A stretch of 62,966 bases of DNA, filler included, from Stramenopiles sp. TOSAG23-6 (GCA_900128565.1; 8 parts of 8 records of this genome joined end to end with filler, not necessarily neighbours in it); one strand, 5' to 3'; numbered from the whole stretch's first letter, positions 21,121 through 62,929 are shown. Notes: a model not told the origin generated them from the letters alone. Made by a program: numbers and translations.

Positions 21121-23382
21121 ATGCAAGACGGTGATAATGTGTCGAAATCAAATCATCCCAGCGACAGTTGTTTGTTGCAATCTATAGATGCTTGTCTGCG
21201 CCTTGTTTCGTCTGGTACTAAAGAAAAAAGCAGTCATCAGTCTTTAGATTCAAAGCAGAAGATCTTGAGAGATTTATTCCAATCACTACAAGACTCCATC
21301 TCTCGAACTGCTGTAACAAATGATTATGGAGTAATGAGTTCAGTACCTCGCATATTAACCGTAATTATGGAAGACGAAACACTCTGTGCATTATCCCTCG
21401 ATTCTGGCGCTTTGGTGTCCTGTCTACTTCAATTTGTTACACTTCGAATACCGCAAGAACGCACGAACGATGGAGTAAAGGTGAAGTCCGTTAATGTACC
21501 TCGTCATCAACTAGTTGAACGAGGGCGCACTTGGGCATTATCAGTTCTCAAAACATTGCTTTCGTCTGAAAGAAGTACACAAAAACATCATCGCGAGTTG
21601 ATACAGAGGCCAGAATTTCCAGTTGGTGTTCAGCCTTTATTCGATTCTGTCTTTATTCAGAATGCTGTACACGCTTTAGTTGGTCAAATTGAGTATTTAA
21701 GACAAGAAACAGATACAATTGAAGCTGTGAAAGCTTTTCAACTAATCGTAAACGAATCAATTCCAATTCTGAGGTTAAGTTTCCATGTTCGTTTTCATCA
21801 TGAATTTCCATTTTTTTTTACTATAAAAATTTTGTACCTAACGATTTTTTTTTTTTCGGTAAAAAAAAAAAAAAAAACATTTTTTACAAAACATATTCGA
21901 ACGTACGAAAGGAATATATGGGAAAGTATATCAACTTTAATAGACACTATATTTCTATGGCATCCGAACCCTAACCCTAGAGATAAGAATGTACCTATTA
22001 CAAAAAGTTGGCTTTCTGATGACATTTTTTGTATTTATTTATATTTATCGTGTATGTTTTATTTTTTTTCAAATTCGATTTTTTTTCGTACGCAATTTTG
22101 TACCTAACGATTTTTTTTTTGAAATATTTTTACAAAATACATTGTCTTGGTTTCAACTTGGAATCTTATTATCTTTGGCATCAATTCAACGTTTTTCAGA
22201 TAAAGTTTTGAATCATTTAACACATAGAGTGTTAAAGTATCACCAACAAGTAAAGCAGTTGCAAGAAAGTCCATGCACGTTTTCATCATTCATTTCAATT
22301 TATATTTTATAATTATTTTTATACGAAATGTTGTACCTAACGATTTTTTTTCTAAAATATTATTTCACTTTACTTGGAACCGCATTGAATCAAAGCGAGT
22401 TCGTGAAGCACTATTTCATGATTCTACAAGTAGTAGTAGTAGTAGTAGTAGTAGTAGCAGCAGTGGCAATACCACTGAGAAAAATCAAAATCCAGAAAAA
22501 GATGAAAAATCAAATAGCAATTTTCATATAGGAATGAATATGGCTACAGAATCTGAGTCTGTTGATATAGAAGCATTAATACTACAAACTATTGAGCATA
22601 GTGCCCATGGCTGGGAGCATATCACACCTTCATTACTTCAATTAGCGGTACGACTTTTAGATATGACTGCGAAAACGTCGAGCTTTTCTATCAAGCAAAG
22701 ATCAAAAACATCAAATATAATATTGCCAGTTGATGTCCTCAATCGAACGAATTCAATGAATCACAAGAGTATAGATGCAAAAGAACTTGCGGTTTGTACT
22801 GGGTTTCGCATATTATTTTCTTTGATTCGCGTTCAAAAAGTTGTACGTTCTAGCATTCTCGAACATATATTGACACGTGTCATGTCACGAGCACCAACAG
22901 TTCGTCAATATATCGCATTACTAAAAGCTATTGCATTAGATACACCAATACTATTACTACCATTTTCTCAAAGAGTGAAAGAAAGTTTAGAATATTGTCC
23001 TTTACTTCCCTCCAGCGTTGCGAGTTTGCTGATTATTGCAGTTGAACCTGTTGTTTGCCTTCGTCCGGACCTTCGTGATTATACAGCAGTTATATTACGT
23101 AAAGCAATGTTTAAAAGAGACCCAGGTGCTCGTATTGTTGCAGTGGAAGGAATGATACGTCTTCTTGTACAATTAGAAAATCAAAGAAATTCAAATGAAA
23201 TGGAACGAAAAGCAGCGCAATTACGGTTTTGGTGTCAAATCTCTGGTTTATTCCGCCGGGTCCTTGGTCAACAATATAGTGTTAGAGAATCACTATATAC
23301 TGGTTTAGTACAGGTATATGAAAAAATCCCAGCTGTACGCCATGAAATTTTATCTTTATTGTTACCGCATGTTCAAAATTAT
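21121..23382 (+). CDS. FANCI: Fanconi anemia group I protein, 5' part, multi-exon
   Basis: HSAHGWEHITPSLLQLAVRLLD, LRKAMFKRDPGARIVAVEG and FRRVLGQQYSVRESLYTG resemble FANCI solenoid motifs. Introns 21787-21894, 22052-22142 (GT-AT) and 22275-22375 (GC-TT). Confidence 0.75.
22275..22375 (+). other. Non-canonical GC-TT intron
   Basis: CCA T|GCACGTTTT...TGTACCTAAC...CACTTTACTT|GG AAC joins two ORFs in phase 1. The acceptor register is taken from alignment to the family consensus. Confidence 0.6.
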
Positions 23383-23544
23383 NNNNNNNNNNNNNNNNNN
23401 NNNNNNNNNNNNNNNNNNNNNNNNNNTTAATTAATTAANNNNNNNNNNNNNNNNNNNNNNNNNNNNNNNNNNNNNNNNNNNNTTTTTTTTCGTACGAAAT
23501 TTTGTACCTAACAAATTTCGAATTTAATTTTTTTTACACTACAT

Positions 23545-25167
23545 GTTTCCTTAAAACAATGGAAAATTTAAATTTACGTAAAAATAATATAGGGTGTAAC
23601 CGACACCGACTTCGACCGAGCCAACTTCAAGAATTTTTACAAAAAAAATGTATAATTATTAACATAGATATTGCAAATCGTTTATGTAAGTGTTTTTTCC
23701 GAAATTTTCATTTTTTTGAATTTTTTTTTGTACGAAATTTTGTACCTAATCAATTTTTTAGATTTTTTCAAAATATTTTTCAACATTATATGTAAAATGG
23801 CAGGGACATTTAGTGATGGCAGAGTTAGTTTTGAAGAGCTAAAGGCTGCTGTGAGAGGAGCATCATTAATAATGGATGTATGTTTTAGTTTTTTTTCAAA
23901 TTCCATTTTTTTTTTTTTTTGAAAATTTTGTACCTAACAAAAAAACATTTGAAATATTTTTCCAAAATACATGCGGAATCGTTTCATATTTTATTAGCAA
24001 AAAAAGAAAATACTTTACATAAAACAAAAACCGAATTAGAAGCTCAAAATATAAAAAATATGGAAAATCATGCTGTTTTTATGAGTGAAGGAAAACAAAA
24101 TCTAAAATATGAAATTCAGGATTTACAGACTCAACATGTATGTTTTATTTTTTTTTTTTTTTACCGAAAAAAAAAAATCGAATTTATTTTTCATACGAAA
24201 TTTTGTACCTAACGAATTTTCAATTTTTTTTTTGAAATATTTTTCCAAAATACATGATGATATTATTCAACGAGTACATGAAATCAAAAGAAATGAATTT
24301 GAGAATTTAGAAAAAATGTATCAAAAACAGATTAAAGAAGCCACAGAAAGACATATAGGTTTTCTTTACGAATTTCAATTTTTTTTTTTTTTTTCATTTT
24401 GAATTTCAATTTTTTTTTTTTTTTTTTCATTATGAATTTCAATTTTTTTTTCATACACAATGGTATACCTAACAAAATAACACATAAAAGATATTTTCTT
24501 ACAATGTATGTTGAATCTTTAATGGAAATAGAGCAGAATAAAGCATTTAGAACACATGAGGGTACATTTTATTTTTTTTTTTCAATTATATTTTTTCGTA
24601 GTTAATTTTGTACCTAACAAAAAACAATTCGATATAATTTTTCATTACACAGCTTTAGATAATTGGAGAAAAGGAAGAGACGAAACCGTCAAGCGGTTAC
24701 AAATTTCCCATGGCAAAACATACGATTCAAAAAAACGATTTTTAGCATCAAAAAAACATGCAAAAATCAAAGCGTTAGAGAAGAAATTTCAACGTCAATT
24801 TGACACACATTCTGCATTATTGAAAAAAATGTATGTTTTTTTTTTTTTTTATATTTTTTTTTTTGCGTAAAAAAATGTTATACCTAACAAAAATTGTACA
24901 ATTTTTTTTATTTTAATTTTTTTTTTGTAGTACATTTTATACCTAACAAAAATTGTACATTTAAAAAAATATATTTTCATACAAAACATTCATCAAACAA
25001 ATATAAAACATAGATTAGAAGAAAATATTTCAATTTTACGGAATGAACGTGAGCTGTTGCTTTCTCAAATGAGGAAGGAAATCAGTGGAAATTCTATTAA
25101 AAAGGAAGAAATTCAAGAAGTAAACAATTCATATGAAAACAAAACTATTTGGGAGTCTGATGTATAA
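23545..25167 (+). CDS. 3' part of an EF-hand-like/coiled-coil protein with 7 short exons
   Basis: Continuous frame after removing introns 23686-23791, 23878-23972, 24138-24255, 24355-24509 (AT-AT), 24562-24652 (GT-AG) and 24831-24989; DGRVSFEEL motif; stop at 25165-25167. Confidence 0.7.
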
Positions 25168-25374
25168 TATATAAGATTTCTTGTGTTTAAAAAGGAAGAA
25201 ATTCAAGAAGTAAACAATTCATATGAAAACAAAACTATTTGGGAGTCTGATGTATAATATATAAGATTTCTTGTGTTTAAAAAGGAAGAAATTCAAGAAG
25301 TAAACAATTCATATGAAAACAAAACTATTTGGGAGCCCCAGGAGTCTGATGTATAATATATAAGATTTCGTGTG
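25097..25374 (+). repeat. Three tandem 90-bp copies spanning the last codons, stop and start of the 3' UTR
   Basis: Unit starts at 25097, 25187 and 25277; the third copy has a 9-bp insertion. Confidence 0.9.
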
Positions 25375-25555
25375 AATAGTGTGAATGGGCTAAATAGTAT
25401 ATAATCTTATATACGATAACTATTGCCAACGGCATTGTATTCATTGAACCAAAACATTTAGAAAAAAAAAAAAAAGAATAAAAAAATTGTTTTTTTTTTC
25501 ATACGAAATTTTGTACCTAATGAAAAACAAAAAAAACGTTTCGAACCTTACTTTA

Positions 25556-26389
25556 TTATTTCTTACTTGTTGTATTTAATATATCCATAACAGAACGAAC
25601 TCGTTTTGAACTCTCTCTACAACACTGTTTCCATTGAGCATCATCTAAACCAGGGCCACCAGGTTTGTGTACAGCACAGATATGCCCGAGTGAGTTGCGA
25701 ACTATAGTGACTTTGGAATTTCCAAATAATTTTTCTTCCTTACCTGACAGATCAATAATAATTTTGTCATCAAATCGGCCAAAAGTTGACGAAATTGGTA
25801 TATGTTTAATAGTCAATGGTGTTGATGTACCATTTGGTGTCATTACGATACATCCTGTTTCTTTATCTAATTCAACGCAAGGAATTCGTGTATTGCGCAA
25901 TGCGGCTAAAGATGCAAGTAATGCACAGTCTTCAACGTTACCATCATGGTTTAAACACAACACATCAAGACGAATAATCCATGAATGCTTTCCCTTATTG
26001 ATACACAACGATTTCAAATCAATAGCCTCAGTACTTGAAATGCTTCGGGTAATAAACTGTGATAGAGTAATAGCTTCCTCTGGGGACGCACCTAACGTAA
26101 AGCGCTCAGCACAAATTGGCCACAACTGCACTTGAACATCAATTTCACCCTGATCCGCTGCATCCTGCTTTGGTTGTATAATTTCAAGTTTTACACCAGC
26201 GACTACTGCAGTATTCCCGATGTATGCTAATGCAGAACCATCTGCTGTTGATATTGAACCTTCACTGACAGAAATGTGACGAACGTCCAAGAGATTTCTT
26301 CCATCCGGTCTGACACTCTTCTCCACAAAACGACGATAAAACTTTTCTGGGTATATCCGTTGAAATGCAGCTACACTCTCACATGCCAT
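25556..26389 (-). CDS. EXOSC8: Exosome complex component RRP43 (RNase PH family)
   Basis: FQRIYPEKFYRRF...RPDGR...GSISTADGSAL, DLKSLCI..GK.SW, LNHDGN, HKPGG. Confidence 0.9.
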   Translation of the reverse strand: MACESVAAFQRIYPEKFYRRFVEKSVRPDGRNLLDVRHISVSEGSISTADGSALAYIGNTAVVAGVKLEIIQPKQDAADQGEIDVQVQLWPICAERFTLGASPEEAITLSQFITRSISSTEAIDLKSLCINKGKHSWIIRLDVLCLNHDGNVEDCALLASLAALRNTRIPCVELDKETGCIVMTPNGTSTPLTIKHIPISSTFGRFDDKIIIDLSGKEEKLFGNSKVTIVRNSLGHICAVHKPGGPGLDDAQWKQCCRESSKRVRSVMDILNTTSKK

Positions 26390-27087
26390 TTCAAGTATGC
26401 TTGTGAGTAATCTACAATAATAATAATAATATCTAAATTGTTTATAGTATAGTACAACTTGTACTTATCACAAAAACGACGTACTTACTATAAGTTACTT
26501 CTTCACTATATTATTGATTGCATTGATCATCTCTCACCAAAATTTTCTACTGACTCATTTTTGAAGCATTTTTGAAAAACAAACAAACATTTTTCAATGA
26601 TTTCTGTGGAGTTGGAACCCGGTAACAGTAACAAATTCAACAATGATAATTAACAATGATAATTTAGTATTTCTGGTAATAGTAATTACATATATGGTAT
26701 AGTAGTAGGAACTATAGATAGGCCAAAAGGTGGCGGAAAACGACATGGAAAGCAAATCAGACAATGCTTTGAACATCAACAAAGATGACGTTTTTTATCA
26801 GAATTTGTCAGACTTAGACTAGACATCCATAATTTGTGCATGGAATTGCTAAACTAGGCAACACAAACACACTTTGTCAATTTAAACTTTATTTTTATTA
26901 AATCAATATAATATCTTTGATATAATCACTTAATTTCTTATAATATACATGTTTAAGATGAAGATTAACTAAGTTATTTAGTTCATTTTTGTTTAGTACA
27001 TAAATGTACGCTCGTCGGGCTCCTTTATACTTTTCGAAAATTCCTTCACCATATATTGGAACTTTCTTAGTTATTTTGTTTTGAATC

Positions 27088-27810
27088 TTAAATCCTTTTT
27101 TTTTTTTCAGGATAATATGCCCATAAAGTTGGGTTTAATACATGAAGGTTTTTTCTTTTTTCCTCAGCTTTATATCCATGAATGTCATCCGGATTTGAAT
27201 ATATATACCATATTGGAAATGGATCTTTTCCTTTTTTATATTGTTTTATTGTATATGCTGGATTCAGACATTTTCTGCGTGATTGTTTTGAATAGTGGAT
27301 TTTCATTGCAGTTTTTTGACAATCCTCACAAGGACATCGTGTACCTATAATGCTTCCTCTGCAAGTTTCCAACCCCGCTTGTAATAAATATGGTATTGGA
27401 TCAATTGTATGTGCTACTTTTGTTATGCTTTGTTGAATTATCTTGTCATTGTTTACTTTTTCAAATTCTGACTTATTATTTGATAAAAATATTGACACCA
27501 CATTTTTTAATTGCAGGAGTATGTTTTGTTCCGTGAAACGTGGTTTAATTGTTTTATTTATACGCGTACGTTGTTCTCCCTTTATGAGTTTTTTTACATT
27601 TTTTTGTACGAACGTTAGTATTTGGTTTATGTTTTTCATTTCTTCAAAATTCGTTCGTTCTTGTAATACGTTTTGCATTTTATCCAGTAATGAAATGACG
27701 TATTTTTCCTTAGAAATTGCCTTCGGCACAGCTTTAACGGTTAGCACGTCATTTTCTTTCGCAACCGCCGGTTCTGCATCTCGAACTGCAACAAGTTTCT
27801 TATTTTCCAT
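27088..27810 (-). CDS. Hypothetical Lys-rich protein
   Basis: 240-aa ORF with a small Cys cluster (CRG...CPCEDC); no recognised family. Confidence 0.45.
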   Translation of the reverse strand: MENKKLVAVRDAEPAVAKENDVLTVKAVPKAISKEKYVISLLDKMQNVLQERTNFEEMKNINQILTFVQKNVKKLIKGEQRTRINKTIKPRFTEQNILLQLKNVVSIFLSNNKSEFEKVNNDKIIQQSITKVAHTIDPIPYLLQAGLETCRGSIIGTRCPCEDCQKTAMKIHYSKQSRRKCLNPAYTIKQYKKGKDPFPIWYIYSNPDDIHGYKAEEKRKNLHVLNPTLWAYYPEKKKRI

Positions 27811-28174
27811 TTTACTTTATATACTGATATTTAATTTCACGATGTTTTTTGTAGTGTTTCATAAATGTTATATTATTGAAATGTACATAATCTGAACGAT
27901 AAAATATTTTATATTAGTTCCGCCAAAGTATTGCAACTACTTTTTTTTCGATAGAGTTCAAAAAATAAAGGTCCTTTGAAGTGTTTTTAAAACACTTCCT
28001 AAAAATATAAAACAAACCTGCTTTGCTTATAATATTGAAACTGTAAAAAAAACAAAAAACGAACAAGACAACTTTTTAGTACTACTTTAATTCCACTTAA
28101 CTTAGGTGAAATTCCTTCACTGTAGTGAGTGTATAATACTATAGAAATGAATCAGTAGAGAAATATAAAGTAGG

Positions 28175-29443
28175 ATGCGCACAAGTAAAGAGATAGAGTC
28201 AGATACAACATCACAAAAAATACTGTTGAAAAGCCAAGGAAAAAAAGAACTTTCAGAGTTTTTCACAATTGTTCCACCAAACACTTTTCATCCTTCAACA
28301 TTTTTTGTACCATTATACAATGGTGGTGTATGTAAAGTTGTTGTTCCTCAAGATGTACATCCTGGTGAAACAATTCGAGTCATGAAAGAAGAAAAAACAT
28401 TGATTGAACATCGATCTCTAAGAGGGTATAAATCTGGTTCCTCTACGCCAAATGAAGAAGATTGCGTTTGGTATTCACAAAAATTAAATACTTCTCTTGA
28501 CTTTTTGACTAGGTTACCATTACATTGTTGCTATCCACGTTTCTTTTCTTGTGTACCACCTATAAATACTAACGATACCTCTCAAAAAAAGTCAAAAACA
28601 ACAAAAACAAAAACAAAATCAAGACGAGTCAATTTAGAGACAAAACAAATGATAAATGCAGAAATTTCTGTCAGGGCACCAAAGAATGTTAGAGGTGGCG
28701 AATTAGTCCGAATTAGGAAAATTAATGAAAATCAATGGGAAGCTAGTTCATTAGTTTCATCGAAAGATATTATATTTCTTATATGTATTGATATAGACCC
28801 TAACCCTAACTCTAAAAGCACAAATGAAAAACAAATACAAACCCTAACCCTAACTACACCGGATGGAAGAAAATTACGATTTTCTTTACCCACCCTAAAA
28901 GACCAAGAAGTACAGCACAGTAGACACCAAAATAAAAACATTTTACGAGTAAAAATATCAAAAAATAGTTATAACCAATGGATTATTGACACACAACAAT
29001 GTCAAATACCAATAGAAAACCCTAAAAAACCTAAAAAAAATAACAAAACTAAAAATCCTAAACAAAAAACACAAAAAATAAAAAAAATACCTAGATACGA
29101 AACGAATCAAACATATCAAATATCTCGAAAAAAAAACAAATCTGGATTTTCAACGGGAGAAATATCAATTATTAATAAAATAGTACACGAACGAACGCAA
29201 AAACAAAATTTTGAAAAGGTAAAAACAAATTATTGGGAAAACTCTCGCAAACGAATTTCGAATTTAGAAAACAAATTAGCCACATCTGAGACTCGAAATA
29301 ATGAACTTTGTAGGAGTCTTCGAGCAACTCGAATGGTTGAGTTCGAAGTAATGATGAATGAATATTTTGAGGAAATTAAGAGATTGCGAGCTTTACTTGA
29401 TCACCATAATATAGATTATCAGATAGTAGAGAAAGAGAGATAG
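28175..29443 (+). CDS. Hypothetical protein with C-terminal coiled coil (weakly IQCE-like)
   Basis: 422-aa ORF; the C-terminal TRMVEFEVMMNEYFEEIKRLRALL resembles the IQCE coiled coil. Confidence 0.55.
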   Translation: MRTSKEIESDTTSQKILLKSQGKKELSEFFTIVPPNTFHPSTFFVPLYNGGVCKVVVPQDVHPGETIRVMKEEKTLIEHRSLRGYKSGSSTPNEEDCVWYSQKLNTSLDFLTRLPLHCCYPRFFSCVPPINTNDTSQKKSKTTKTKTKSRRVNLETKQMINAEISVRAPKNVRGGELVRIRKINENQWEASSLVSSKDIIFLICIDIDPNPNSKSTNEKQIQTLTLTTPDGRKLRFSLPTLKDQEVQHSRHQNKNILRVKISKNSYNQWIIDTQQCQIPIENPKKPKKNNKTKNPKQKTQKIKKIPRYETNQTYQISRKKNKSGFSTGEISIINKIVHERTQKQNFEKVKTNYWENSRKRISNLENKLATSETRNNELCRSLRATRMVEFEVMMNEYFEEIKRLRALLDHHNIDYQIVEKER

Positions 29444-29662
29444 ATATTTATATATGATACGTAGAGTACAAAAATTGTCCATTATATACGTCATACCCAA
29501 TAAAACAAATTATATATGTACGAATTTGATATAGATTTAGTCTTTAGAAATTCAGAAATATAGTATAATAATAATAATATTAAATTTTTGTTTTTTTTTT
29601 ATTTTGTTTTTCTTTTTTTTTAATTTCTTTTGATTTTATTAAACACTTAATTAAAAGGCCCC

Positions 29663-32157: not shown

Positions 32158-32722
32158 CTAGCTAGGGTATGTCTTCCAAATAACTTCCATTCGTACATCT
32201 TTTGGATTTCGTGTACCGTCACGAAGTTGCTGCTCAAAGATTTCAATCATTTTCTTAGAATCAAGCGTCGGTGGCTCCCAGCCTAACCCTTTATTATATG
32301 CTTCTAAAGTTGAAAAAAATTGACTTTGAGTGGCGACACATTCTGATGCCGCCATGAAGTTTAGGAAAATATTTTTTTACATTGGATGAATTGCTTTGTT
32401 AGGCACAAAATTTGGTTCAAATAAAAATTATAAAAACAATTTGAAAATTGAAAGCTTACATGACCCAATATTCAGATTGAGGTAGCTCGCCATATTCGCG
32501 ATAGTGTAGATTTGTATTAGTATTCCTTTTGCAATTTTTATTTGCCTCATTATCATAAACTAGATTGCTTAGAATAGTTTGCAATACATCATCTTTGATT
32601 TGTTCTTCTTTTCTTGAAACATCGAGTTTTTTCACCTGTTGTTTTTCATCCCCCATCTTAATGTCTGTTGACATCTGTAGACTATGTATATCTGTATCAT
32701 CGATATTATTACTCGGGTTCAT
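32158..32722 (-). CDS. Hypothetical protein, 2 exons
   Basis: ORFs 32456..32722 and 32158..32355 join (EYWVM-AASEC) through a diverged GT-AT intron at 32354-32459 (GTAAGC...GTGCCTAAC...CTTCAT). Confidence 0.7.
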
Positions 32723-33285: not shown

Positions 33286-34306
33286 ATGCATCCATTCTTG
33301 CGCTTGTCTTCAAAAACAGTGGCTGTAGGAGGTGGTACAACCTTGTTTTTGTATGGTTCTTTTGTCGCCGCGGACTCATGGCAAGGTCGCCCTACAGCCC
33401 TCCCAACATGGTTGAGACCTCTCCATCCATTTGAGAGTTATGCTCATTATAAACAGCTTCGAAGAAGAGAAAGTCAAGTTGTTCCCCCCAAAGTTGATCA
33501 AAAATGGGCACGAACAACTGCTGCTATAGAAATCGCCATGGATACTGCTTTCAGGGGGCCCGTATGGAAAGATGCACAATCTGAAGCTAAAAAGAGATGG
33601 TCTCAAGCAAAACTTAGAATAAAAGATAAAAGAAATAAATTTCGTCAAAAAGTAAAACATGTAAAGAATCGAATGAAACAAACGGTAACATCATCATCAT
33701 CATCATCTACTTCTCTTGGTACGAATAAAGAAATGACTGATGATGATTGGAATACATATTTGACAGAAATAAATGCTCAACATGATGATTCTCAGTGGAA
33801 TAAAAATGAAAATGGAAATCATGATTCAAGTCAAATGGAGTTGACAGGAAACCTAAACAAAAACCCAAAAAAAAATAATAATGAAAACATTGAGAATGTT
33901 GAGAATTTTGATCAAACATTGGAAAAAAAAATGAATCCCAATCCGTTCAAAAAAAACGAAGATCCCCCCAAAAAACAAAGTTTCTTGTCAAAATTACGTG
34001 AACGCTGGCAAGATAGTTTGACAAAATTAGCACCTCTTGGTGAGTCATCGAATGGAAATCATGTAGAAATTTTTTGTGATCCTGACGTAGGTTTTTTTTT
34101 TTTAAAATTTTTTCGTACGAAATTTTGTACCTAACGAAAAAAAAAAAATGAAAACATTTTGAAATTTTTTGAAATTTTTTTTGTACCTAATGATTTTTTT
34201 TTCTTGAATATGGTACACTACATATGCGTATTTTGAAAGTATATGGCAATCTATCGATAAAGCGAATCAACGTGTTTGGTTTGAAATATATACATTAGAG
34301 GATGAT
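33286..34306 (+). CDS. Phospholipase D / cardiolipin synthase-like protein, 5' part
   Basis: Removing intron 34087-34225 gives GNHVEIFCDPDAYFESIWQSIDKANQRVWFEIYTLEDD, typical of a PLD/Cls first domain; the HKD motif is not reached. Confidence 0.7.
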
Positions 34307-34418
34307 GTTTGTTTTATTTTTTTTTTTACAAAAAAATCGATTTTTTTTTTCGTACGAAATTTTGTACCTAACAATTTTTTTTTTAAAGAAAATTTTGAAA
34401 TATTTTTCCAAAATACAT

Positions 34419-34578
34419 TCAGAAATTCTTTGGCCATATACTGGGTTTATAGGTGTTTATATAACAGTGCCAGAATCATCTAAAACATGGAAAGGCATTG
34501 CACGAGGTGATTTAGAGTGTACTGTAATGTCGCCACCTAGGAATGGTAAAAAATGAACGTTTTCATTTCAATTTTTTA

Positions 34579-34618
<40 letters not shown>

Positions 34619-35027
34619 NNNNNNNNNNNNNNNNNNNNNNNNNNNNNNNNNNNNNNNNNNNNNNNNNNNNNNNNNNNNNNNNNNNNNNNNNNNNNNNNNN
34701 NNNNNNNNNNNNNNNNNNNNNNNNNNNNNNNNNNNNNNNNNNNNNNNNNNNNNNNNNNNNNNNNNNNNNNNNNNNNNNNNNNNNNNNNNNNNNNNNNNNN
34801 NNNNNNNNNNNNNNNNNNNNNNNNNNTTTTTTTTTGAAATTTTTTTTTTTAAACGAAATTTTTTACCTAAAAAAAAAAAAAAAAAATATTTTTTCACAAT
34901 ACTTTTAGACTGGAATGGAGATTTTATACATACTAATTTTAATGGTGTTTTTAAAACTTTGATTAGTGCTGGTTTTTATGTTGAAATTCTCTCAACAGAT
35001 TTTAGATGTTTTGATGCGAGTCTTTAT
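34419..35027 (+). CDS. MBTPS1: Internal exons of site-1 protease (subtilisin S1P/SKI-1)
   Basis: Exon 34419-34554 SEILWPYTGFIGVYITV...WKGIARG...TVMSP and exon 34905-35027 LDWNGDFIHTNF...GFYVEIL...CFDASLY match conserved S1P segments. Confidence 0.75.
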
Positions 35028-35275
35028 GTATGTTTTATTTTTTTTTTTTACAAAAAAATCGAATTTTTTTTTCGTACGAAATTTTGTNNNNNNNNNNNNN
35101 NNNNNNNNNNNNNNNNNNNNNNNNNNNNNNNTTAATTAATTAANNNNNNNNNNNNNNNNNNNNNNNNNNNNNNNNNNNNNNNNNNNNAATATTTCAAAAA
35201 AAAAAACTAAAATTTGTTAGGTACAAAATTTCGTACGAAAAAATAAATAAATTCAAAATTGAAATGAAAACGTAC

Positions 35276-42364: not shown

Positions 42365-45055
42365 TCATTGTGTTAAAACAATTTCATCAACAAACTCCAT
42401 TGCAACTTGAAGCTGTTCATTGCTCATGTCAACAGGTTCTGTAGTCAAGACGTTAACATTTACCAGTCTCTCTACGCCAGAATTAAAGCCTTCTATAACC
42501 AAGCTGTCTTTATGTTGACCAGCTCGTACACTGTGTATTGTGAAATATATTTTTAAATTTTTACTAGCTAGGTAAACAATTTTCTGTGAAAAAAGATATA
42601 TTTGAAATTAACGATGAAAACGTATATTGCGAATATCTGAAGTTTTGTCACGCATTCCTCTCTTAAATGTTTTAAGTTTTTTTTTGATACTATCTCTTTT
42701 TTCCGATTCAAATATTTTTCGTTTTGAAGAATTGTGTTCGATACCAACAAATGCATTGATTATCTTACTATCCACTTTATCAAGCCGAGAATTCTCGATG
42801 AATTCAGCTCCAGCTGCTTGAGTTCCTCCATCATTTTTTGTTTCAATAGCTTGTTTCTCTCCGTCTTTCTTTTGCTGATTCAAAAATTCAAGTTGTTTCA
42901 TTTGAATTAAAGCCTTAATTGAATCCGTAAGTTGTTCAGTTCTGTTATTAGTAGGCGTTTGAAAAGTAGATCTGAAAGTAGAAAAATCATGTGTTGCATT
43001 TACATCATTTTCATCTACAATAGGCAATTCACCAGCATATAACTTATTTTGTCTCAAGTCTTCCCAATCCTTGATTTTTAAATATCCACGAAAATGTGAC
43101 TCTTCCAATTCGAATTTGTGAAAGTCGCAATGGTTTACATCAATATTGAATTTATGTTGTATTCTGGATGCCATGAATGATAAATGTGGCAGTTTAAAAG
43201 CTAAATTAGAGAATGTGTTTATTCCATCGGTTCGGATCCCACCCTGTTTTAGTTTTGAAAAACATTTTCTCACTTTTGTCATCATTGCTTGCAAGCTTAA
43301 ATTAGTCATTTGATTCTCACGTGTTTGTTTCTTTGATGCATTAATTCTTGGAACAAATCTCTTAGGTAAGCAAACAGGAAATTCGTGTGACGGCCATCCG
43401 TTTTCAACGTCAAATGATTTATCTAATGTTGCTGTATCTTCTTCATTCAATTTTTCATTATATGCACTTTCATCATTGGTTCTAAAAGTCAGAAGTATAT
43501 CAACTTGTGATTTACTCTTAATGTACTCGAATAGAGCTTCAGCCGAATGCATATGCTTAAAGCATGTGTGGTTGCCCACACGTGTGGCTACATAGAGCAA
43601 ACCGTTTTCATCATGAGCCAGAATGCTTTTAGTTAGTAAAAGTGATGCTGCTGCTTTCTTCATCTCAATAAGACAATTTGTTTCTTGAAATGTTAAAAAA
43701 TTTGATTCAATCGTTTGAAATTCATTATTTGTATTTTTATTCCTCTTCTGTTTTAGATTGTTTGTTGGATCAGGTAGTATACCTTGACCTGGTATAAAAA
43801 CTGCTGATGATTGGATGACAGCTAATTTTATTCGTTTAGTTCTTATTTTTTTGACTTTTGGTGTGCGACTAGTTGAAGTTTGTTTTTTGGGTTTTGACTT
43901 TTCCTTAGTATTGTTTGAATTTTCGTTGTTTGACTCTTGGTACAAGCATATGTACATAGTATCGTCGGTCAAGTCTTCAAGATACGAACACAATGCATTA
44001 TCCTGTTTTATTGGCTCGAAGGTTTTGCTTGAAAGTGGTTTACCTTTTTTGCTCAATTTAGGCACAAGAAACATGTCTTTGGATAAATTAGTTGGTGCAT
44101 CCTCCATACGATCGGACAGTATATCAATAATTGTTTTCACTTCTGTAGTAGAAGTTTCGCCAATTACTTTTATATCACTGTACACGATTGCTGTGTTGTC
44201 GAATTCTCCAATGTAATTTTGTGGGTTTGATACAATTGTTTTAACAGACTTGGATACATATAGCTTGATTTTTTTTACTGAATCTTTGGATGGCACTTCA
44301 ATACTGTCGTCGTCATTCGTTGCTGGATCTTTACTATCGGTTGTTGAATCGCTATCGTCAAACGATACAGGGTTTAAAGGCAACGATTTTGCTTTACCTG
44401 TACCATCGGTTGTTGTTGAATCGGTATCGCTATCTGAACCCTCGGTTGTTGAATCGCTATCTGAACCCTCGGTTGTTGAATCGCTACTAGATAGGGAATA
44501 CTTAGTCCGTGTGTTTTTTTTTTTGGAGTTATTCTCATCAGAAATCAAATCTAATAACACTTCCCCTGCCGAAATAGTTGAGTCTTTGGAACTAGAGTTA
44601 TCCATCTCGAAAGATTCAGAAACCGAATCAGTGGAGTCGGACTCAGACTCAGACTCGCAGACCACAGCAATCCTGAGTTTCCTGTTTGTATCGACGTGGG
44701 CTGTCATTATGGATTTCACATTCGTTTGTGTCAAAGGAGTCCATGCCGTTTCACGATTCGATAGTCCTGGTGTTCGTAAAACGTAAATGTTCTTATAACT
44801 TTCACTTGAACTGTGTTTCAGAGCCTTCTGTATTCCGTTGACAAGCTGCCCCATGATGGCGTTTCCTGTTCTACTTTGTGATACAACTTTTTTTATTTTT
44901 CCTTTTTCTTTAAAAGACTTTTTCTTTGTGCCAGTATAAAGTGACAGTACGATATAGTCATTACACCTACCTTTGTATAGAGTGGGCATTGCGTGATTAT
45001 TTAACAGCGAATCGTAACTAGGGTAGATAAAAGGTCTTTCTGATGTCCTTTTCAT
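42365..45055 (-). CDS. Transposon ORF2, about 865-aa protein of unknown function, 2 exons
   Basis: The ATG lies within the right TIR (MKRTSER); Ser/Asp/Thr-rich repeats; intron 42533-42625 joins a further 55-codon exon ending at TGA 42365. Confidence 0.7.
42533..42625 (-). other. AT-AC intron of the host family within transposon ORF2
   Basis: AAT|ATACGTTTTCA...TTTACCTAGC...AAATATATTTCACAATACAC|AGT. Confidence 0.6.
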
Positions 45056-45582: not shown

Positions 45583-46573
45583 ATGTGTAAGAAAATGCAA
45601 GAAGTCAAAGTCGGTTGTGAGTCGAAGAATGTACAGCATGCGAATCGTCGAAGGATGCTGCTTAGGCGAAAAGAAGCCGAGGAGAAGTATGTCCGAAGAA
45701 TGGAACTTGGCCGTGATGATGCGAATCCGCCACCACGTAAATTAGCTGTTCAACCTCGTGATCCGCTCTGTCCTGTTTCGCCGTTGAAATCTGTTAAGCA
45801 ATTCGTTGATCGCATGAAAAAAGCCAAGTCTAAAATGTATGTTTTAATTTTCAATTTCGAATTTGTTTTTCGTACGAAATTTTGTACCTAACAAATTTTA
45901 GTGTTTTTTTTTGAAATATTTTTCCAAAATACATCCCAACAAAGATAGACTTTTCGGATAAGCGCGTACGATTAAAATTGCATAACCGTTACGTGCGTAA
46001 GAAAAAGAGAGCGGCTATGGCTAAAGCATGTTCTCGACAGAGAATATCAGCGCGCAAAAACGAGCTTGATTCTCTCAGGATGTTTTATTTTTTTTAATTT
46101 CGAATTTATTTTTTCGTACGGAATTTTGTACCTAACAAAAAAACGAAAACAAAAATATTTTTTCACAATATATGGGCAATGATGCAGGCCAGAGTGGCTG
46201 ATGCTTTAGCTGCTGAGTTGGCAGAAGAAGAAGCTCAAACAACTCACAACGAAGCAGAAAAAAGCTCAGCAAATGTCAAAGCTTGTGCTCTGATGAGAAT
46301 CTCGGAGCGCAGAGATGAGCTTGATTCGCTCAGGATGTTTTATTTTTTTAATTTCGAATTTATTTTTTTTTTTAATTTCGAATTTATTTTTTCGTACGGA
46401 ATTTTGTACCTAACAAAAAAACAAAAACAAAAATATTTTTTCACAATATATGGGCAATGATGCAGGTCAGACTGGCTGCTGCTATTGATGCTGGTTTGGA
46501 CGAAGAAGATGCCAAAACAACTCACGACGAAGCCTTTCTACTGGCTCAGCAATACCAAAAGGTGTTTGCTTGA
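45583..46573 (+). CDS. Hypothetical basic/coiled-coil protein, 4 coding exons with a duplicated exon-intron unit
   Basis: Frame is continuous after introns 45837-45934 (GT-AT), 46078-46173 and 46333-46451 (GG-AT); a probable 5'-UTR GT-AG intron lies at 45364-45560. Confidence 0.7.
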
Positions 46574-46623: not shown

Positions 46624-46654
<31 letters not shown>

Positions 46655-46888: not shown

Positions 46889-49246
46889 AAAAATATTTCA
46901 AAAAAAAATCGTTAGGTACGAAATTTCGTATGAAAAAAAAAATCAAATTAGAAATTCATATAAAACATACGTGCACTCGGCAAAGATATTTCCTCACTTT
47001 TAGAATTTATTTTCCCTTTCTTCTCTGGATCTTTCTTTTCACTTTTGATTGATCCAATTTTACCAAACGAATATTTCCCTCGAGAGGGAGAAATTGGTGG
47101 GCAGATTGGTTGTGTATCTTTTGGTGGTGCATGTGTTTGCTTTCTAGCTTTTGGTGGTGCATGTGTTTGTTTTGTAGCTTTTGGTGGTGCATGTGTTTGT
47201 TTTGTAGCTCCAAATGATGTATATGTTGCTTTTGGACTCCTATATGCGCCTTTCTGATCATAAAATTTCTTACGAGCCAAAGGTGATTCGCCAGTGTCTC
47301 GTATGTTTTGTTGAAACGTTTGTTTAGGCTTTGTTTTCTCTGCCGAAATGTCGTGAACGGAAGAATTATCAACTGTTTTGGGTGGCTTACCTGGTTTCCC
47401 TATCTCAGATTTTTCTCTCTGTTCAAATTTCTGCCTTGGATTTCCCTTTGTATTTTCTTCCATCGACGAATCACCTCTTACTTTCTTTTGCTTTCTATGT
47501 TTTTTATCTTTTTTCAACATTTGTTGTTTTCTTTTATTTTGCTGTTTCCATTCCATTTTAGCCCTAGATACATTTAATTTCGTTACATGTGTGGCAGCAG
47601 CCGCAATAGCGGCAGCTTCACTACCAAAAGTAAGCATGGCTAAGTCATATGCAGCTCCAATAGAAGATCCTGCAAGCATTGCTAAATCACCATAGCGCCT
47701 CATTCGTGCTAACCTTGACACTGCAATGCGTGATGCGCTGAGTCTTCGTTTCCATGAAGACAATGCCACCCCAACAGCAGCTAGAGCGTCATTCTTTTCA
47801 GGGGTATTGGACCGTACTCTAGCTAGACGTTGCTGTTGAGACATTAACTTCTTTACTCTTTTTTGTATTGGCAGAGTGTGTTGTTCTAAGGCCCTTAAAA
47901 AGATGGGTCGAGTTTCTAAAGACAATCCTGCGATTACTTGTTGGACAACTTCGGGATATGGAATCGCCTGACCATCCTGCATCGTCAGGTTTAAAGATAT
48001 ATATTACCTATATATCTATCTATCTATCTAGACATTAGGGTAATGCGAACACGCTTTAGAAATGTGCATCTTTCATTCTGAAAAACATTTAAAGCTTACT
48101 AGCTACTACTGAGCGGCTACGTAAGTTGTTTTTTCAAATACAGTTACAAAATAGTACTAAGTAGTCGTTTTTGTCAGAACTCGAATTCAACTCGAACTGA
48201 AACTATTACGTTCAGGTACTCGTGGTTTAAGATCAGTACCTACTATTTCGTAGTTTTCTGTTTGTATTCTATATAGATATGTCTTCTGCTTTAAGTTGTT
48301 TCGACGCCAGTGATTCAAGTGATTATTTGACTAGTGATGAAGATTGTATAGATGAAATTACAGAGTCAAAACGTCAGTATGATGTTCTCAAGTCACGCAT
48401 GTTTGGTCCAGCATTTAAGGAAGGTATGGATGCTTCAGTTGATGCAGCAGTTCAACCTGGATTTAACGCTGCATATCGTGAAGCTATACCTGAAGCAGTT
48501 GTACGTGGCCGTCGCCTCGGATATGCTAGTATTCTTTCTTCATTCTACGACAAGCATAAAGATTTGTGTGATCCGGAAATGTTACTGAAACTTCGTAGTT
48601 TTCGTGATGCTTCGTATGCTGAGGCCAGCAACCTACCTAGTCCGTCACTTTCCGAGTGGGATGGCCAAACAGGTACATGGAAAGTGAATGTCGCAAATAA
48701 CCCTACTGTCGCTAATACCGACCTAGAAAATCCAAATAATGATAATGTCATAGCTTCAAATAAAGCTCAAAGTGAGCAAAAGTTAATTATAACTAGTTTG
48801 AATTTAACAATAGAGCCAATAGAACCAATAGCACTTTCTGATTCGACAGTAATACGTTCGACACCTATAGAAAATACAACGCATATAGATATCGAACATA
48901 CAAATAAATCCATCGATTCGATTGAATATGGACCTGATGGAAAGTCCCTTCTTGTTGGTTCCAAAACTGATTATGCTCCAGTTTTACCTTCTGGCTTGTT
49001 GCTATTTGGTAATGTAAAAACGGCACGAAATTGGCCTCTGATGCAACAACTACAGATCGATGCAGTAGTCAATCTAATAAAATATAAAACAAACAAGAAA
49101 AATAAGTCAGAGAATAAACCATTATTTGCAGATCGTTTATCTGGTGGGTTGTTACACTGTCCAATTGAAGATAAGCCTAATACAGGAATGTCTTGGGCTG
49201 AAAATGTTTCAAAATTTATTGATGAAAAGTTAAAAAATAATCAGAG
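46889..49246. repeat. Left arm of a 2358-bp inverted duplication (partner 56116-58473)
   Basis: Identical ORFs in mirror positions; paired coordinates sum to 105362. Confidence 0.95.
46971..47982 (-). CDS. Hypothetical protein with KATKQTHAPP repeats, first exon (copy 1)
   Basis: ORF ends at the family intron donor at 46970; identical to 57380-58391. Confidence 0.65.
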
Positions 49247-57083: not shown

Positions 57084-58473
57084 ATCTATATAGAATACAA
57101 ACAGAAAACTACGAAATAGTAGGTACTGATCTTAAACCACGAGTACCTGAACGTAATAGTTTCAGTTCGAGTTGAATTCGAGTTCTGACAAAAACGACTA
57201 CTTAGTACTATTTTGTAACTGTATTTGAAAAAACAACTTACGTAGCCGCTCAGTAGTAGCTAGTAAGCTTTAAATGTTTTTCAGAATGAAAGATGCACAT
57301 TTCTAAAGCGTGTTCGCATTACCCTAATGTCTAGATAGATAGATAGATATATAGGTAATATATATCTTTAAACCTGACGATGCAGGATGGTCAGGCGATT
57401 CCATATCCCGAAGTTGTCCAACAAGTAATCGCAGGATTGTCTTTAGAAACTCGACCCATCTTTTTAAGGGCCTTAGAACAACACACTCTGCCAATACAAA
57501 AAAGAGTAAAGAAGTTAATGTCTCAACAGCAACGTCTAGCTAGAGTACGGTCCAATACCCCTGAAAAGAATGACGCTCTAGCTGCTGTTGGGGTGGCATT
57601 GTCTTCATGGAAACGAAGACTCAGCGCATCACGCATTGCAGTGTCAAGGTTAGCACGAATGAGGCGCTATGGTGATTTAGCAATGCTTGCAGGATCTTCT
57701 ATTGGAGCTGCATATGACTTAGCCATGCTTACTTTTGGTAGTGAAGCTGCCGCTATTGCGGCTGCTGCCACACATGTAACGAAATTAAATGTATCTAGGG
57801 CTAAAATGGAATGGAAACAGCAAAATAAAAGAAAACAACAAATGTTGAAAAAAGATAAAAAACATAGAAAGCAAAAGAAAGTAAGAGGTGATTCGTCGAT
57901 GGAAGAAAATACAAAGGGAAATCCAAGGCAGAAATTTGAACAGAGAGAAAAATCTGAGATAGGGAAACCAGGTAAGCCACCCAAAACAGTTGATAATTCT
58001 TCCGTTCACGACATTTCGGCAGAGAAAACAAAGCCTAAACAAACGTTTCAACAAAACATACGAGACACTGGCGAATCACCTTTGGCTCGTAAGAAATTTT
58101 ATGATCAGAAAGGCGCATATAGGAGTCCAAAAGCAACATATACATCATTTGGAGCTACAAAACAAACACATGCACCACCAAAAGCTACAAAACAAACACA
58201 TGCACCACCAAAAGCTAGAAAGCAAACACATGCACCACCAAAAGATACACAACCAATCTGCCCACCAATTTCTCCCTCTCGAGGGAAATATTCGTTTGGT
58301 AAAATTGGATCAATCAAAAGTGAAAAGAAAGATCCAGAGAAGAAAGGGAAAATAAATTCTAAAAGTGAGGAAATATCTTTGCCGAGTGCACGTATGTTTT
58401 ATATGAATTTCTAATTTGATTTTTTTTTTCATACGAAATTTCGTACCTAACGATTTTTTTTTGAAATATTTTT
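56116..58473. repeat. Right arm of the 2358-bp inverted duplication
   Basis: Reverse complement of 46889-49246. Confidence 0.95.
57380..58391 (+). CDS. Hypothetical protein with KATKQTHAPP repeats, first exon (copy 2)
   Basis: Ends at donor GTATGTTTT 58392; the contig ends inside the intron. Confidence 0.65.
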
Positions 58474-58573
58474 NNNNNNNNNNNNNNNNNNNNNNNNNNN
58501 NNNNNNNNNNNNNNNNNTTAATTAATTAANNNNNNNNNNNNNNNNNNNNNNNNNNNNNNNNNNNNNNNNNNNN

Positions 58574-59919: not shown

Positions 59920-60071
59920 GTATGTTTTATTTTTTTTCAATTTCGAATTTATTTTTCGTACGAAATTTTGTNNNNNNNNNNNNNNNNNNNNNNNNNNNNN
60001 NNNNNNNNNNNNNNNTTAATTAATTAANNNNNNNNNNNNNNNNNNNNNNNNNNNNNNNNNNNNNNNNNNNN

Positions 60072-61354
60072 CCAACAACAATACATATATTGTGAAAAAA
60101 TTTTTTTTTTTTTTTTTTTGTAAAATTTGATTTTTTTTTGTTAGGTACAAAATTTACTATGAAAAAAAAAATTTAAAAAAAAATTTAAAAAAAATTTAAA
60201 AAAAATTTAAAAAAAAATTCAAAAAAAAATTCAAAAAAAAAACATACACGAAAAGACTCTCCAACAAAACGAAGTGTCATCAAATAAAATGTAACAAACA
60301 ACAGCCGATCCAATAATTACAAATATACCAGCAACAGCAATTCCTCCTCTAGTAATCCATGTAATGAAAAAAAAAAATCAAAAAAAATCAAAAAAAATTT
60401 TGTTAGGTACGAAATTTTTTTACGAAAAAAAAAAAAAATCAAAATTCAATTTTTTTGTAAAAAAAAAAATAAAATCATACATAATAATTTTTCCAATAAT
60501 TTCAAATCTTCTTCACGCTGTTCTTCTTTTGTCATTTTTTCCATTTCAGCTTTTGATTTAGCAGTTGATGATGTAGTACGTACAGCAAAAATACCCAAAA
60601 TTGAACAGAAAATACCGAGACCAGCAATCCAGAAAGGTAATGCCATGGCATGTATTATGAAAAATAACAAAAATGTCCGAAAAAAAAAATTGTTAGTTAT
60701 AAAAAAAAAANGTCCNGAAAAAAAAAAAAAAATTCTGAAATTTTTTTTTGTTCCAATATAAAAAAAATATAAAAAAAATATAAAAAAATATAAAACATTA
60801 TACAACATACATTCCATAATTGATCCATACCTAAATGAGGAATTTTACGATCCATTGGAAAACTTGGAAATGGTGATAAATTATGGACATCCTATATTGT
60901 GAAATTTTTTTTTTTTTTTTTTTTAAATTTGATTTTTTTTGTTAGGTACAAAATTTACTATAAAAAAACAAAATTTAAAAAAAAACATGAAAAAAAAAAA
61001 AAAACATACATGTCCATCGTGTATCTTAGGAAAGCATGAGGCGGTAGCACCATAAATTGTGGTATATAATTGCTGAAATTTTGACCATGCTTCAGTACCT
61101 TGAGTAAACTCAGCTGCGCCGGAAGGGACAACATTCTCAATATCAATACATGCATTTATATGAGTTGGATTTGTAAAAACATTTTTTGCACATTTTGATT
61201 TAACAAATAATTTCATTTGTTTGCCATCATCTTTTAAAAAGAAAGTGTTAAATACGTTTTGTCCAAAATTGACTCCGCATGATCCAGCTGACATTCCACA
61301 AAATCTTGATCCATCAGTGGTTCCATTACAAGAAGCCACAGGTAGTGATTTACA
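60072..61354 (-). CDS. Internal exons of a membrane protein, probably H+-translocating pyrophosphatase
   Basis: Spliced (introns 60892-61009, 60650-60810, 60359-60480, 60085-60247): AMALPFWIAGLGIFCSILGIFAVRT...LLWITRGG...WRVFSCIVVG resembles mid-protein H+-PPase helices, preceded by a Cys-rich insert. Confidence 0.55.
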
Positions 61355-61404
61355 CTGTATAGTGAAACAATATTTCAATTTTTTTTTTGGTACAAAAAAA
61401 CGTT

Positions 61405-61447
<43 letters not shown>

Positions 61448-61651
61448 TTTTTTACCTAAAAAAAAAAAANNNNNNNNNNNNNNNNNNNNNNNNNNNNNNN
61501 NNNNNNNNNNNNNTTAATTAATTAANNNNNNNNNNNNNNNNNNNNNNNNNNNNNNNNNNNNNNNNNNNNTTTTTTTTCAATTTCGAATTTATTTTTCGTA
61601 CGAAATTTTGTACCTAACGATTTTTGTTTGAAATATTTTTCCGAAACACAT

Positions 61652-62872
61652 GGAATGTAAAGATGAAAGCTACAGTTACAAAACTTGAAATTCGTTCATT
61701 GGTAACAATTAAAAGCTTTACTTCAGTTCCACTTCAATTGCTTCCACTTTTACATTTTCAACGGGCCTCAAACGACAATTTGAAAAATACAAAAAATACA
61801 AAAAAAAATACAAAAAATACAAATAAAATGATGAAATTTTTTAATCGAGTCAAAGAAATTTCAAAAATTACAAAACATATGGATAGTACACATAACCCAC
61901 AGACAAATCCGAAACATTTGAATGAAATTCATGAGTGTACTCGTTTTTGTTTAGATGTATGTTTTCAAAAAAAAACAAAAATTTTAACTTTTTAATTTTT
62001 TTCGTACGAAATTTTGTACCTAACAATTTTTTTTTTTTTTTTAAATATATCCTCAACAAATATGCTTTTGAAACGTATTCTTTACCATTATCTGATGCGG
62101 TTGCATCTGCAATTGTTGTAAAACCAATGTTACATTTCATGCAAAATAAACAATCCAACACCACTAACCCTAATCCTGCTCATCATTCAAACCATGGTGC
62201 AAAAAAAAATACAAAAAATACAAAAAATACAAAAAATATGCATGTTTTATTTTTTTTCAAATACGAAATTTTTTTTATAGTAAATTTTGTACCTAACAAA
62301 TTTAAGTTTTTTTTTTTTCAAATATTTTTCCAAAAAATATGAGTAATGTACAGTACGACGCGGCAGTGTCATTTAGTCAACCTATACCGATTCAACAACC
62401 CATTAGCACAGACGAAACAAAACACACTACAACAACATTTAATAAACAGTCTAACCCTAACCCTAATGATAATGAAATAATAGAAGCTTATCGACTCAGT
62501 AGTAATGTTTTATTATCAAAAATTGGATATACATGTATGTTTTATTTTTTTGAAAATTTGAATTGTTTTTTTTTATAGGAAATTTTGTACCTAATGAATT
62601 TTTTATTTTTTTGAAAATTTGAATTTTTTTTTTTTTTTTATAGGAAATTTTGTACCTAATGATTTTTTTTTGAAATATTTTTCCAAAATACATTTCATTC
62701 ACATGTTTCTGTAGTAAAACACGTGCAGGGCGATATTGAAATATCATTTTTTGCTCCAATTACACTTAATAATTTTTTACCATATGAAGTCGAATTTAGA
62801 CTGCAATATTTGGATAAAGATAAACTTGATTTCATTGATAAAGTAAAATGGATCGTTAAGGACAAAAGACAT
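61652..62872 (+). CDS. Internal exons of a probable VPS13-family protein
   Basis: Introns 61957-62063, 62240-62340 (GC-AT) and 62535-62693; the last exon ISFFAPITLNNFLPYEVEFRL resembles VPS13 adaptor-binding repeats. Confidence 0.45.
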
Positions 62873-62929
62873 GAATGTTTTATTTTTTATTTTTTTTTAA
62901 TCGAAAAAAAAAAAAAAAAAAAAAAATCG

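Follow-up and report, generated by a model that had tools for sequence, protein, structure and literature searches.

Probable introner-like introns ending mostly in AT in Stramenopiles sp. TOSAG23-6, a microbe in which long internal signals, and not the customary end letters, probably guide splicing

Introner elements are known in Micromonas, Aureococcus, dinoflagellates and fungi, as outlined in a review (PMC11282704) and a survey (PMC9860276). Here we analyze a stretch of 62,966 nt (hereafter the window) from Stramenopiles sp. TOSAG23-6 (GCA_900128565.1; eight parts of eight records joined end to end with filler, not necessarily neighbours in the genome), which carries at least 39 copies of one repeat family in 63 kb, approximately one per 1.5 kb, so placed that most of its genes are interrupted. 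Judged by the outlines given in those two articles, the family resembles introners in that many near-identical short introns are placed in the genes of one genome, lie in sense orientation and carry splice signals of their own. The main finding is the family itself together with its 3' end, which is AT and not AG in 27 of the 32 complete copies.

According to a summary in PMC7789003, the splicing motifs of Aureococcus introners are canonical, and their direct repeats and terminal inverted repeats are constant. Compared with that summary, the copies in the window end in GT-AG in only 3 of 32 cases and in GT-AT in 22 of 32, no copy-specific target duplication was found among them, and their ends are only weakly complementary. 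The same article describes the introners of Amoebophrya as having hairpin-forming inverted repeats of 8–20 nt and as lacking a clear dinucleotide signature (PMC7789003). Both sets are repeated non-canonical introns in which short repeats overlapping the borders blur the position of the cut; in the window, most copies both follow a (C)AT and end in one. The family differs from this portrait of Amoebophrya in its sharp GT..AT signature and its conserved branch-like box.

The tunicate Fritillaria borealis has escaped the GT/AG rule throughout its genome, with AG-AC and AG-AT as the commonest pairs (PMC11282704). Introner transposons with weak splice sites are mentioned as one possible source; an altered U2AF, with zinc-finger changes in U2AF1 or ZRSR2 or duplicated genes, is also reported (PMC13326754). 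The likeness lies in the departure from GT/AG and in introns ending in AC or AT. From what these articles relate, the tunicate loses the 5' GT, whereas here the GT is kept in 31 of 38 5' ends, the 3' G is replaced by T, and the host is a protist. A further point of comparison is provided by the U12-type introns of Physarum, where GT-AT (17%) and AT-AT (8%) are among the non-canonical classes and the branch motif was sought only in the last 45 bases (bioRxiv 10.1101/2020.10.12.336362); as presented there, they resemble our family in the length and fixity of the 5' motif, in having A or G at +1 and in leaving the last base free. Our literature search found no paper on introners in MAST (marine stramenopile) lineages, on introners with GT-AT ends, or on non-canonical splice sites in marine stramenopiles (supplements may hold tables), and the accessible portions of PMC5778133 and PMC8163842, which deal with such assemblies, make no mention of odd introns.

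The repeat family and its 3' end

A first-pass annotation of the window had listed eight 9-mers as donor sites with a relaxed first dinucleotide (GC, GG, GA or AT). All eight lie at the positions and on the strands given there (collected in Table 1), and each of them opens a copy of a single repeat family. In broad outline a copy reads NNNNGTTTT, then GTACCTAAC, then ..AYAT. The 5' module has the consensus GTATGTTTT and continues into one of two subfamily tails, often followed by a short AATTTCGAAT stretch and then by a U run. The branch-site-like box GTACCTAAC is preceded by CGTACGAAATTTT, and a variable U-rich A/T stretch separates it from the 3' module, whose consensus is GAAATATTTTT(C)CA(A/C)AATACAT and whose end lies 33–53 nt past the box. 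Complete copies are 91–163 nt long (median 106), and members of the family are 67–92% identical to its consensus.

Copy ends were set by aligning reference pieces derived from the window to each copy, with a few shifts by eye; 23878..23972 served as the reference copy, and a later scan with profiles of both ends added one copy, 14913..15009. Beyond the 32 complete copies, the catalogue contains seven more 5' ends, from copies interrupted by a gap or by the end of the window, and four more 3' ends, two of which (23544 and 61355) were counted by hand. Conservation was counted over 38 5' ends and 34 3' ends; three of the four additional 3' ends entered this count, one of them misplaced (23504).

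The consensus GTATGTTTT occurs 22 times compared to 1.8 expected, a number reached in none of 100 shuffles. The bare core ANGTTTT is hardly enriched (159 occurrences vs. 126 expected, with 1 of 100 shuffles reaching 159), so likeness among 9-mers is by itself weak evidence; the listed sites are real because the rest of the repeat family follows each of them, with the branch-like box and the 3' module present behind six of the eight. When metagenome contigs were scanned with a 16-mer around the box, none of the 118 loci obtained contained the family, and two weak look-alikes did not belong to it.

Conservation is uneven along the copy. Position +1 is G in 35 of the 38 5' ends (A in two, T in the ambiguous copy), +2 is T in 31 (A in three, C and G in two each), +3 is A in 34, and +4 is mixed and separates the subfamilies. 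Beyond these, G occupies +5 in 37 of 38, and T occupies +6 in 35, +7 in 36, and both +8 and +9 in all 38, in agreement with the earlier observation that the GTTTT starting at +5 is retained where the donor dinucleotide changes. The box columns are conserved in 23–25 of 25, a score inflated by the use of GTACCTAAC as a search key. Mean identity to the consensus outside the first four bases is about 0.81 (divergence ~19%), which puts +2, where 31 of 38 copies have T, close to the family average in variability. Part of the shared sequence reflects common descent, since the sites are copies of one repeat family.

These positions also bear on the possibility that a minor (U12-type) or minor-like spliceosome removes the family, for which the long fixed 5' and branch motifs, the A or G at +1 and the free last base could be cited. 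The 5' consensus of the family differs from the motif [G/A]TATC[C/T]TTT given for Physarum at +5 only, and AT..AC and AT..AT copies exist, GT-AT and AT-AT being among the non-canonical classes reported in that preprint (bioRxiv 10.1101/2020.10.12.336362). However, the differing position is the nearly invariant G+5, where U12-type introns have C, and with T at +6 in 35 of 38 the U12 5' motif [G/A]TATCCTT is not matched; +2 varies here and is fixed in the U12 motif; and the copies constitute a repeat family. The branch signal differs as well: U12-type introns have TTCCTT[G/A]AC close to the 3' end, and here the box is GTACCTAAC, with its branch A 33–53 nt from the end, compared to 9–12 nt for the branch motif in the Physarum account. 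We consider removal by a U12-type spliceosome improbable, if an alternative to be taken seriously.

The AT 3' end is a larger oddity than the donor variants. Position -2 is A in 32 of 34 3' ends, whereas -1 is T in 30, G in three and C in one, and the three AG ends fall in the same alignment column as the AT ends. In addition to the GT-AT and GT-AG copies counted above, the complete set contains two GG-AT pairs, one each of GC-AT, GC-TT, AT-AT and AT-AC, and one ambiguous case. The TT acceptors reported earlier at 22375 and 34904 are likewise present. AG cannot serve as the general acceptor: in the interval from the box to 30 nt beyond the copy, 17 of 29 copies offer no AG that is in frame and free of stops, and six contain no AG whatever. 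With these ends the copies do not fit canonical U2-type introns, which begin with GT (or GC) and end in AG.

The flank upstream of the copies has A at -2 in 28 of 38 cases and T at -1 in 30 of 38; AT precedes approximately 28 of 38 copies and ends 30 of 34. Because (C)AT also precedes most copies, the cut can be shifted by one or two bases in these. GT..AT is the reading that fits most copies, and in copy 7282, where the flank is not AT, it yields the sulfotransferase motif described below. A leftward shift by 2 nt, which would turn the copies into AT..AC introns, was rejected, as it suits approximately 27 of 38 starts and only 24 of 34 ends, compared to 31 and 30 for GT..AT. In splicing generally, a first intron A partners a last C, and the AT..AC pair would also fit such a partnership.

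Frame restoration and the cost of retention

All 30 copies with clear flanks lie in sense orientation within open frames, and exact removal of the copy, at ends set by the alignment and nothing else, joins the longest flanking open frames in 28 of these 30 clear cases (from the 32 complete copies), compared to a chance expectation of one third (P = 9e-12); both properties are those of introners. The two misses have near alternatives, in 34087 the next AT, 2 nt further on, and in 60800 a GT 3 nt upstream. All six complete copies with a start other than GT are in frame after removal, as had been proposed for the complete relaxed-donor cases. If retained, the copies would introduce an in-frame stop in 25 of 31 cases and a frameshift in five more; only 21787 can be read through.

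Conserved protein motifs agree with the placement of the ends. The exon following 14199..14293 begins at position 10 of the Pkinase profile and the preceding exon ends in ..VGT. The glycine loop of kinases has the motif GxGxx[G/S], and these two exon ends place its formation exactly across this GT..AT copy. The whole kinase domain is pieced together across three copies. In the sulfotransferase gene, the residues K-S-G-T-T|F, which we take to be the sulfotransferase motif, arise across 7282..7385. A word-based search with the sulfotransferase exon yielded no match, and the 837-residue exon beside 42625 had no matches in a search of representative proteins.

It could be argued that the copies are not introns but small transposon insertions, removed from DNA or tolerated, or artefacts of an amplified single-cell assembly. 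They do form a repeat family, the (C)AT before and at the end of copies could be a fixed target duplication, the window contains an open reading frame (ORF) for a DDE_3 transposase, and contigs break within copies. This scenario would leave without account the sense orientation of all copies with clear flanks, placed inside open frames (30 of 32), and the intron-like 5' and branch signals, and retention would truncate 30 of 31 host proteins, including the kinase and a site-1-protease-like gene. Beyond the AT, no copy-specific direct repeat was found at the copy borders (p = 0.25–0.57 for 2–3 nt), a result that would be compatible with a fixed 2-nt target. We view insertions or artefacts of this kind as the least probable of all the explanations considered, and very unlikely in absolute terms. 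The transposase ORF (40961-42259, plus strand; Tc1/mariner-type) was also considered as the source of the family and rejected, as inverted ends like those of the family were not found around it.

Recognition of the copies and competing explanations

These patterns lead us to propose that the copies are introner-like introns and that the spliceosome removing them is tolerant of loose end dinucleotides, a reading to which we assign a probability of roughly 0.6. The spliceosome would remove the copies from the precursor messenger RNA, guided to them by G+5, by the U run from +6 to +9, by the box and by the 3' module, and it would tolerate changes in the end dinucleotides, the last base being usually U (rarely G or C) and +2 any base. 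Non-GT starts would be point variants, for which the aligned position is most likely also the place of the cut. The DNA sequence establishes the family, its anatomy, its sense orientation, the restoration of frame and the uneven conservation along a copy; from it we infer that removal takes place in RNA, which bonds are cut and what type of spliceosome is at work.

Several observations weigh against this proposal. Restoration of the frame is expected of any recent insertion, spliced or not; the case for splicing comes from the many genes, some of them surely needed, that carry copies which would truncate them. The TT and AC 3' ends occur only with non-GT starts (2 of 6 vs. 0 of 25, p = 0.03), which fits decaying copies too. 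The assembly is gapped and its contigs break inside family copies. No exon-exon joint across any copy is seen among the RNA joints listed (15 of 51), at an exon depth of approximately 1–5. Finally, each non-GT copy has an in-frame, stop-free alternative, with the GT at +5 as donor and the 3' end 2 nt earlier.

Under this last alternative the family would be spliced, but in copies that have lost the initial GT the invariant GT at +5/+6 would act as a cryptic donor and the 3' end would move as well, which would add two codons and leave the 5' dinucleotide rule intact. A GT is present at +5/+6 in 35 of 38 copies, and with the 3' end moved by -2 (to AC or AT) all six complete non-GT copies stay in frame and free of stops. 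On the other hand, in GT copies it is the first GT and the last AT that fit conserved motifs such as the kinase glycine loop, the shifted 3' end would be needed simultaneously, and nothing positive speaks for the shift. We consider the cryptic donor unlikely, if the strongest of the alternatives.

The association of TT and AC ends with non-GT starts could also mean that the non-GT copies are dead or poorly spliced introns, their donors lost by point mutation and their host genes becoming pseudogenes or genes with little product. Frame restoration needs no splicing under this scenario, and the lack of joints across copies among those listed is in line with it. However, the non-GT copies are no more diverged than the GT copies (identity to the consensus 0.80, n = 5, vs. 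0.81, n = 20; p = 0.92), and they are flanked by long open runs, 335 codons after 22375 and 837 before 42625. Moreover, the GG copies 46078 and 46333 differ by one substitution and a 23-nt internal duplication, compared to approximately 15–20% in the adjacent exons, which are still open; this suggests that the GG copy was kept or propagated. The two may represent one event, as near-identical copies in two tandem repeat units. Decay of the non-GT copies seems to us slightly less likely again than the use of a cryptic donor. The variability of +2, the similar divergence of non-GT and GT copies and the kept GG copy favour the view that +2 is not strictly read, and a relaxed +2 is a credible property of the family, judging from the DNA.

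The relaxed-donor starts without a 3' partner, the two GA cases noted earlier, have simple explanations: 34555 is cut by the N208 gap and 62873 by the window end. A pairing of 34555 (GA) with the TT end at 34904 as one intron was rejected. The exon before 34555 ends at position 111 of 130 of the Pfam profile MBTPS1_3rd and the exon after 34904 starts at MBTPS1_4th position 34, so that an exon of about 50 residues lies between them, lost in the N208 gap.

The first-pass annotation had further suggested that the splice sites are specified by G+5, the U-tract, the branch motif and/or pairing of the intron ends and not by the terminal dinucleotides. This interpretation is partly supported. The three sequence signals, and likewise A-2 of the 3' end, are far better kept than +2, with a reservation for the branch motif: copy 14913..15009 lacks the GTACCTAAC box and is in frame within the kinase, so the box may be inessential and would be dispensable if this copy is spliced. 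The exon end and the copy end share a 9-nt direct repeat in this case. A near-palindrome just before the box was discarded as a signal, as its left arm is poorly kept and no compensating changes were seen (by eye only).

End pairing as a specifier is not supported. The consensus ends are complementary, but weakly (mean duplex energy -3.4 kcal/mol). Pairing within a copy does not exceed that between ends drawn from different copies (6.83 vs. 6.67 of 9 pairs, p = 0.09; p = 0.06 for duplex energy) and is poorest in the non-GT copies, and no significant covariation of the paired ends was detected across the family copies. For the non-conventional introns of Euglena, a dependence on base pairing between the two ends of the intron has been proposed. 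They resemble the family in lacking GT-AG borders, so far as the descriptions at hand go, whereas the pairing comparison gives no sign here of the dependence on structure that would mark the Euglena type.

Transcripts were sought in three seawater metatranscriptome runs, each containing 5–13% of the sampled words of 23500-33400. Contigs from the runs placed on 23483-35087 include one of 386 letters that matches 30810-31195 without differences, which shows the runs to contain this organism or a very close relative of it. The joints listed link different repeat copies, with short sides of 20–31 letters. A contig at 24700-24850 enters copy 24831 by 20 letters, which is below the 31-letter bridging threshold and was left uncounted. 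At 23483-25030 and 34319-34705, the contig depth summed over copies reaches hundreds to thousands, with exon-only bins at 0–5 (three libraries); the bin with extreme depth has long T runs and may draw unrelated contigs. The abundant repeat words in contigs of RNA libraries cannot separate spliced from unspliced RNA, or RNA from DNA.

As to the machinery, budding yeast, as an intron-poor eukaryote, has strict 5' and branch signals, and the family consensus and box are similar to them except for an extra C in the box. This resemblance suggests a U2-type spliceosome with an altered 3'-site reader. An Rfam search of the window returned no match and no small nuclear RNA gene. We speculate, more tentatively than for the family-level proposal, that in this presumably uncultured marine protist A-U may be the standard 3' splice site and the second intron base free. 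The extended 5' motif (G+5 and the U run), the branch box and the 3' module would then define the introns, nearly all of which would come from an introner family that spreads by itself and brings these signals along. In that event the first and last intron bases would interact as G-U (A-C in the single AT..AC copy) and not as the usual G-G, implying an alteration either in the protein that reads the 3' site (U2AF1- or ZRSR2-like) or in a contact of the catalytic core.

If RNA confirms removal of the copies, the family would represent an independent protist case of wholesale departure from GT/AG, beside Fritillaria, Amoebophrya and the euglenids, with an unusually clean signature in which most copies keep GT and AT takes the place of AG. 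As members of a single family, the introns amount to a natural mutagenesis screen, in which the positions that drift (+2, +4 and the last base) and those that stay fixed (G+5, the U run, A-2 and the box) would show which features the splicing machinery reads. In genomes of this kind, gene finders restricted to GT-AG will get most gene models wrong, and the public MYST model described below is visibly wrong; gene counts and completeness of such assemblies are for that reason probably underestimated.

Catalogue of copies and neighbouring sequence

The copies are listed in Table 1. The window is eukaryotic DNA of approximately 35% G+C, in which contigs are joined by linkers, with one extra gap (N208). 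Most contig ends sit within family copies, an indication that the repeat breaks the assembly.

Table 1. Family copies, partial copies and contig linkers in the window (positions counted from its first letter).
Feature	Position	Strand	Remarks
Copy GC..TT	22275..22375	+	FANCI-like gene; in frame; flanking open runs 110 and 335 codons
Copy AT..AT	24355..24509	+	in frame
Copy AT..AC	42533..42625	-	AG 2 nt further on; in frame; 837-codon open run upstream
Copy GG..AT	46078..46173	+	in frame
Copy GG..AT	46333..46451	+	in frame; 1 substitution and 23-nt internal duplication relative to 46078
Copy GC..AT	62240..62340	+	in frame
Copy GT..AT	2105..2195	+	
Copy GT..AT	7282..7385	+	sulfotransferase gene; junction ..KSGTT|F..
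Copy GT..AT	11541..11649	+	next exon lost in linker
Copy GT..AT	11939..12038	-	
Copy GT..AT	12207..12298	-	
Copy GT..AG	13963..14056	+	
Copy GT..AT	14199..14293	+	kinase glycine loop formed across junction
Copy GT..AT	14616..14731	+	
Copy GT..AT, no branch-like box	14913..15009	+	in frame between kinase exons
Copy GT..AT	21787..21894	+	sole copy that can be read through (108 nt, no stop)
Copy GT..AT	22052..22142	+	
Copy GT..AT	23686..23791	+	directly before likely start codon
Copy GT..AT, reference	23878..23972	+	
Copy GT..AT	24138..24255	+	
Copy GT..AG	24562..24652	+	A at +5
Copy GT..AT, box duplicated inside	24831..24989	+	
Copy GT..AT	32354..32459	-	
Copy GT..AT	34087..34223	+	frame fits only with 3' end at next AT, 34225
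Copy GT..AT	34307..34418	+	
Copy GT..AT	45837..45934	+	
Copy GT..AT	60085..60247	-	next exon cut by linker
Copy GT..AT	60359..60480	-	
Copy, 5' end ambiguous	60650..60810	-	GT at 60803 yields in-frame GT..AT
Copy GT..AG	60892..61009	-	
Copy GT..AT	61957..62063	+	
Copy GT..AT, box duplicated inside	62535..62693	+	
5' part, GA start	34555..34618	+	cut by N208 gap
5' part, GA start	62873..62966	+	cut by window end
5' part (GT)	11755..11835	-	cut by linker
5' part (GT)	35028..35087	+	cut by linker
5' part (GT)	35188..35275	-	cut by linker
5' part (GT)	46889..46970	-	same sequence as 58392-58473
5' part (GT)	58392..58473	+	duplicate of 46970
5' part (GT)	59920..59971	+	cut by linker
3' part, TT end	34827..34904	+	AG 4 nt downstream
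3' part, AT end	23483..23544	+	
3' part, AT end	61570..61651	+	
3' part, AG end	61355..61469	-	
N44-TTAATTAATTAA-N44 linkers	11655-11754, 23383-23482, 35088-35187, 46789-46888, 58474-58573, 59972-60071, 61470-61569		

Additional family-like sequences occur outside the catalogue. The positions 46577 and 38451 (plus strand) are good matches to the 5' module without a recognizable 3' module, one just past the last exon before a linker and the other directly behind a stop codon; both may represent family copies that have diverged or been truncated. Two 79-nt stretches at 51302-51380 and 53747-53825 (plus strand) have family-like 5' and 3' ends and lie within the open ORFs of two tandem kinase paralogues. 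The site-1-protease-like gene, with the third and fourth domains of MBTPS1, extends over 34419-35027 (plus strand) and has at least four family copies.

The gene of a MYST histone acetyltransferase is a continuous ORF at 16060-17445 (minus strand), with a MOZ_SAS match at residues 235-412, and its exons are identical to the protein eukprot:GSMAST32.ASY1.ANO1.2432.1. The public protein model omits three in-frame pieces of this continuous ORF, one of them within the MOZ_SAS match, and looks like an annotation artefact.

The segments at 46.9-49.1 kb and 56.2-58.4 kb are one sequence in two opposite orientations, with identical ORFs at 46948-48003 (minus strand) and 57359-58414 (plus strand); they are probably one locus assembled twice, or an inverted duplication.

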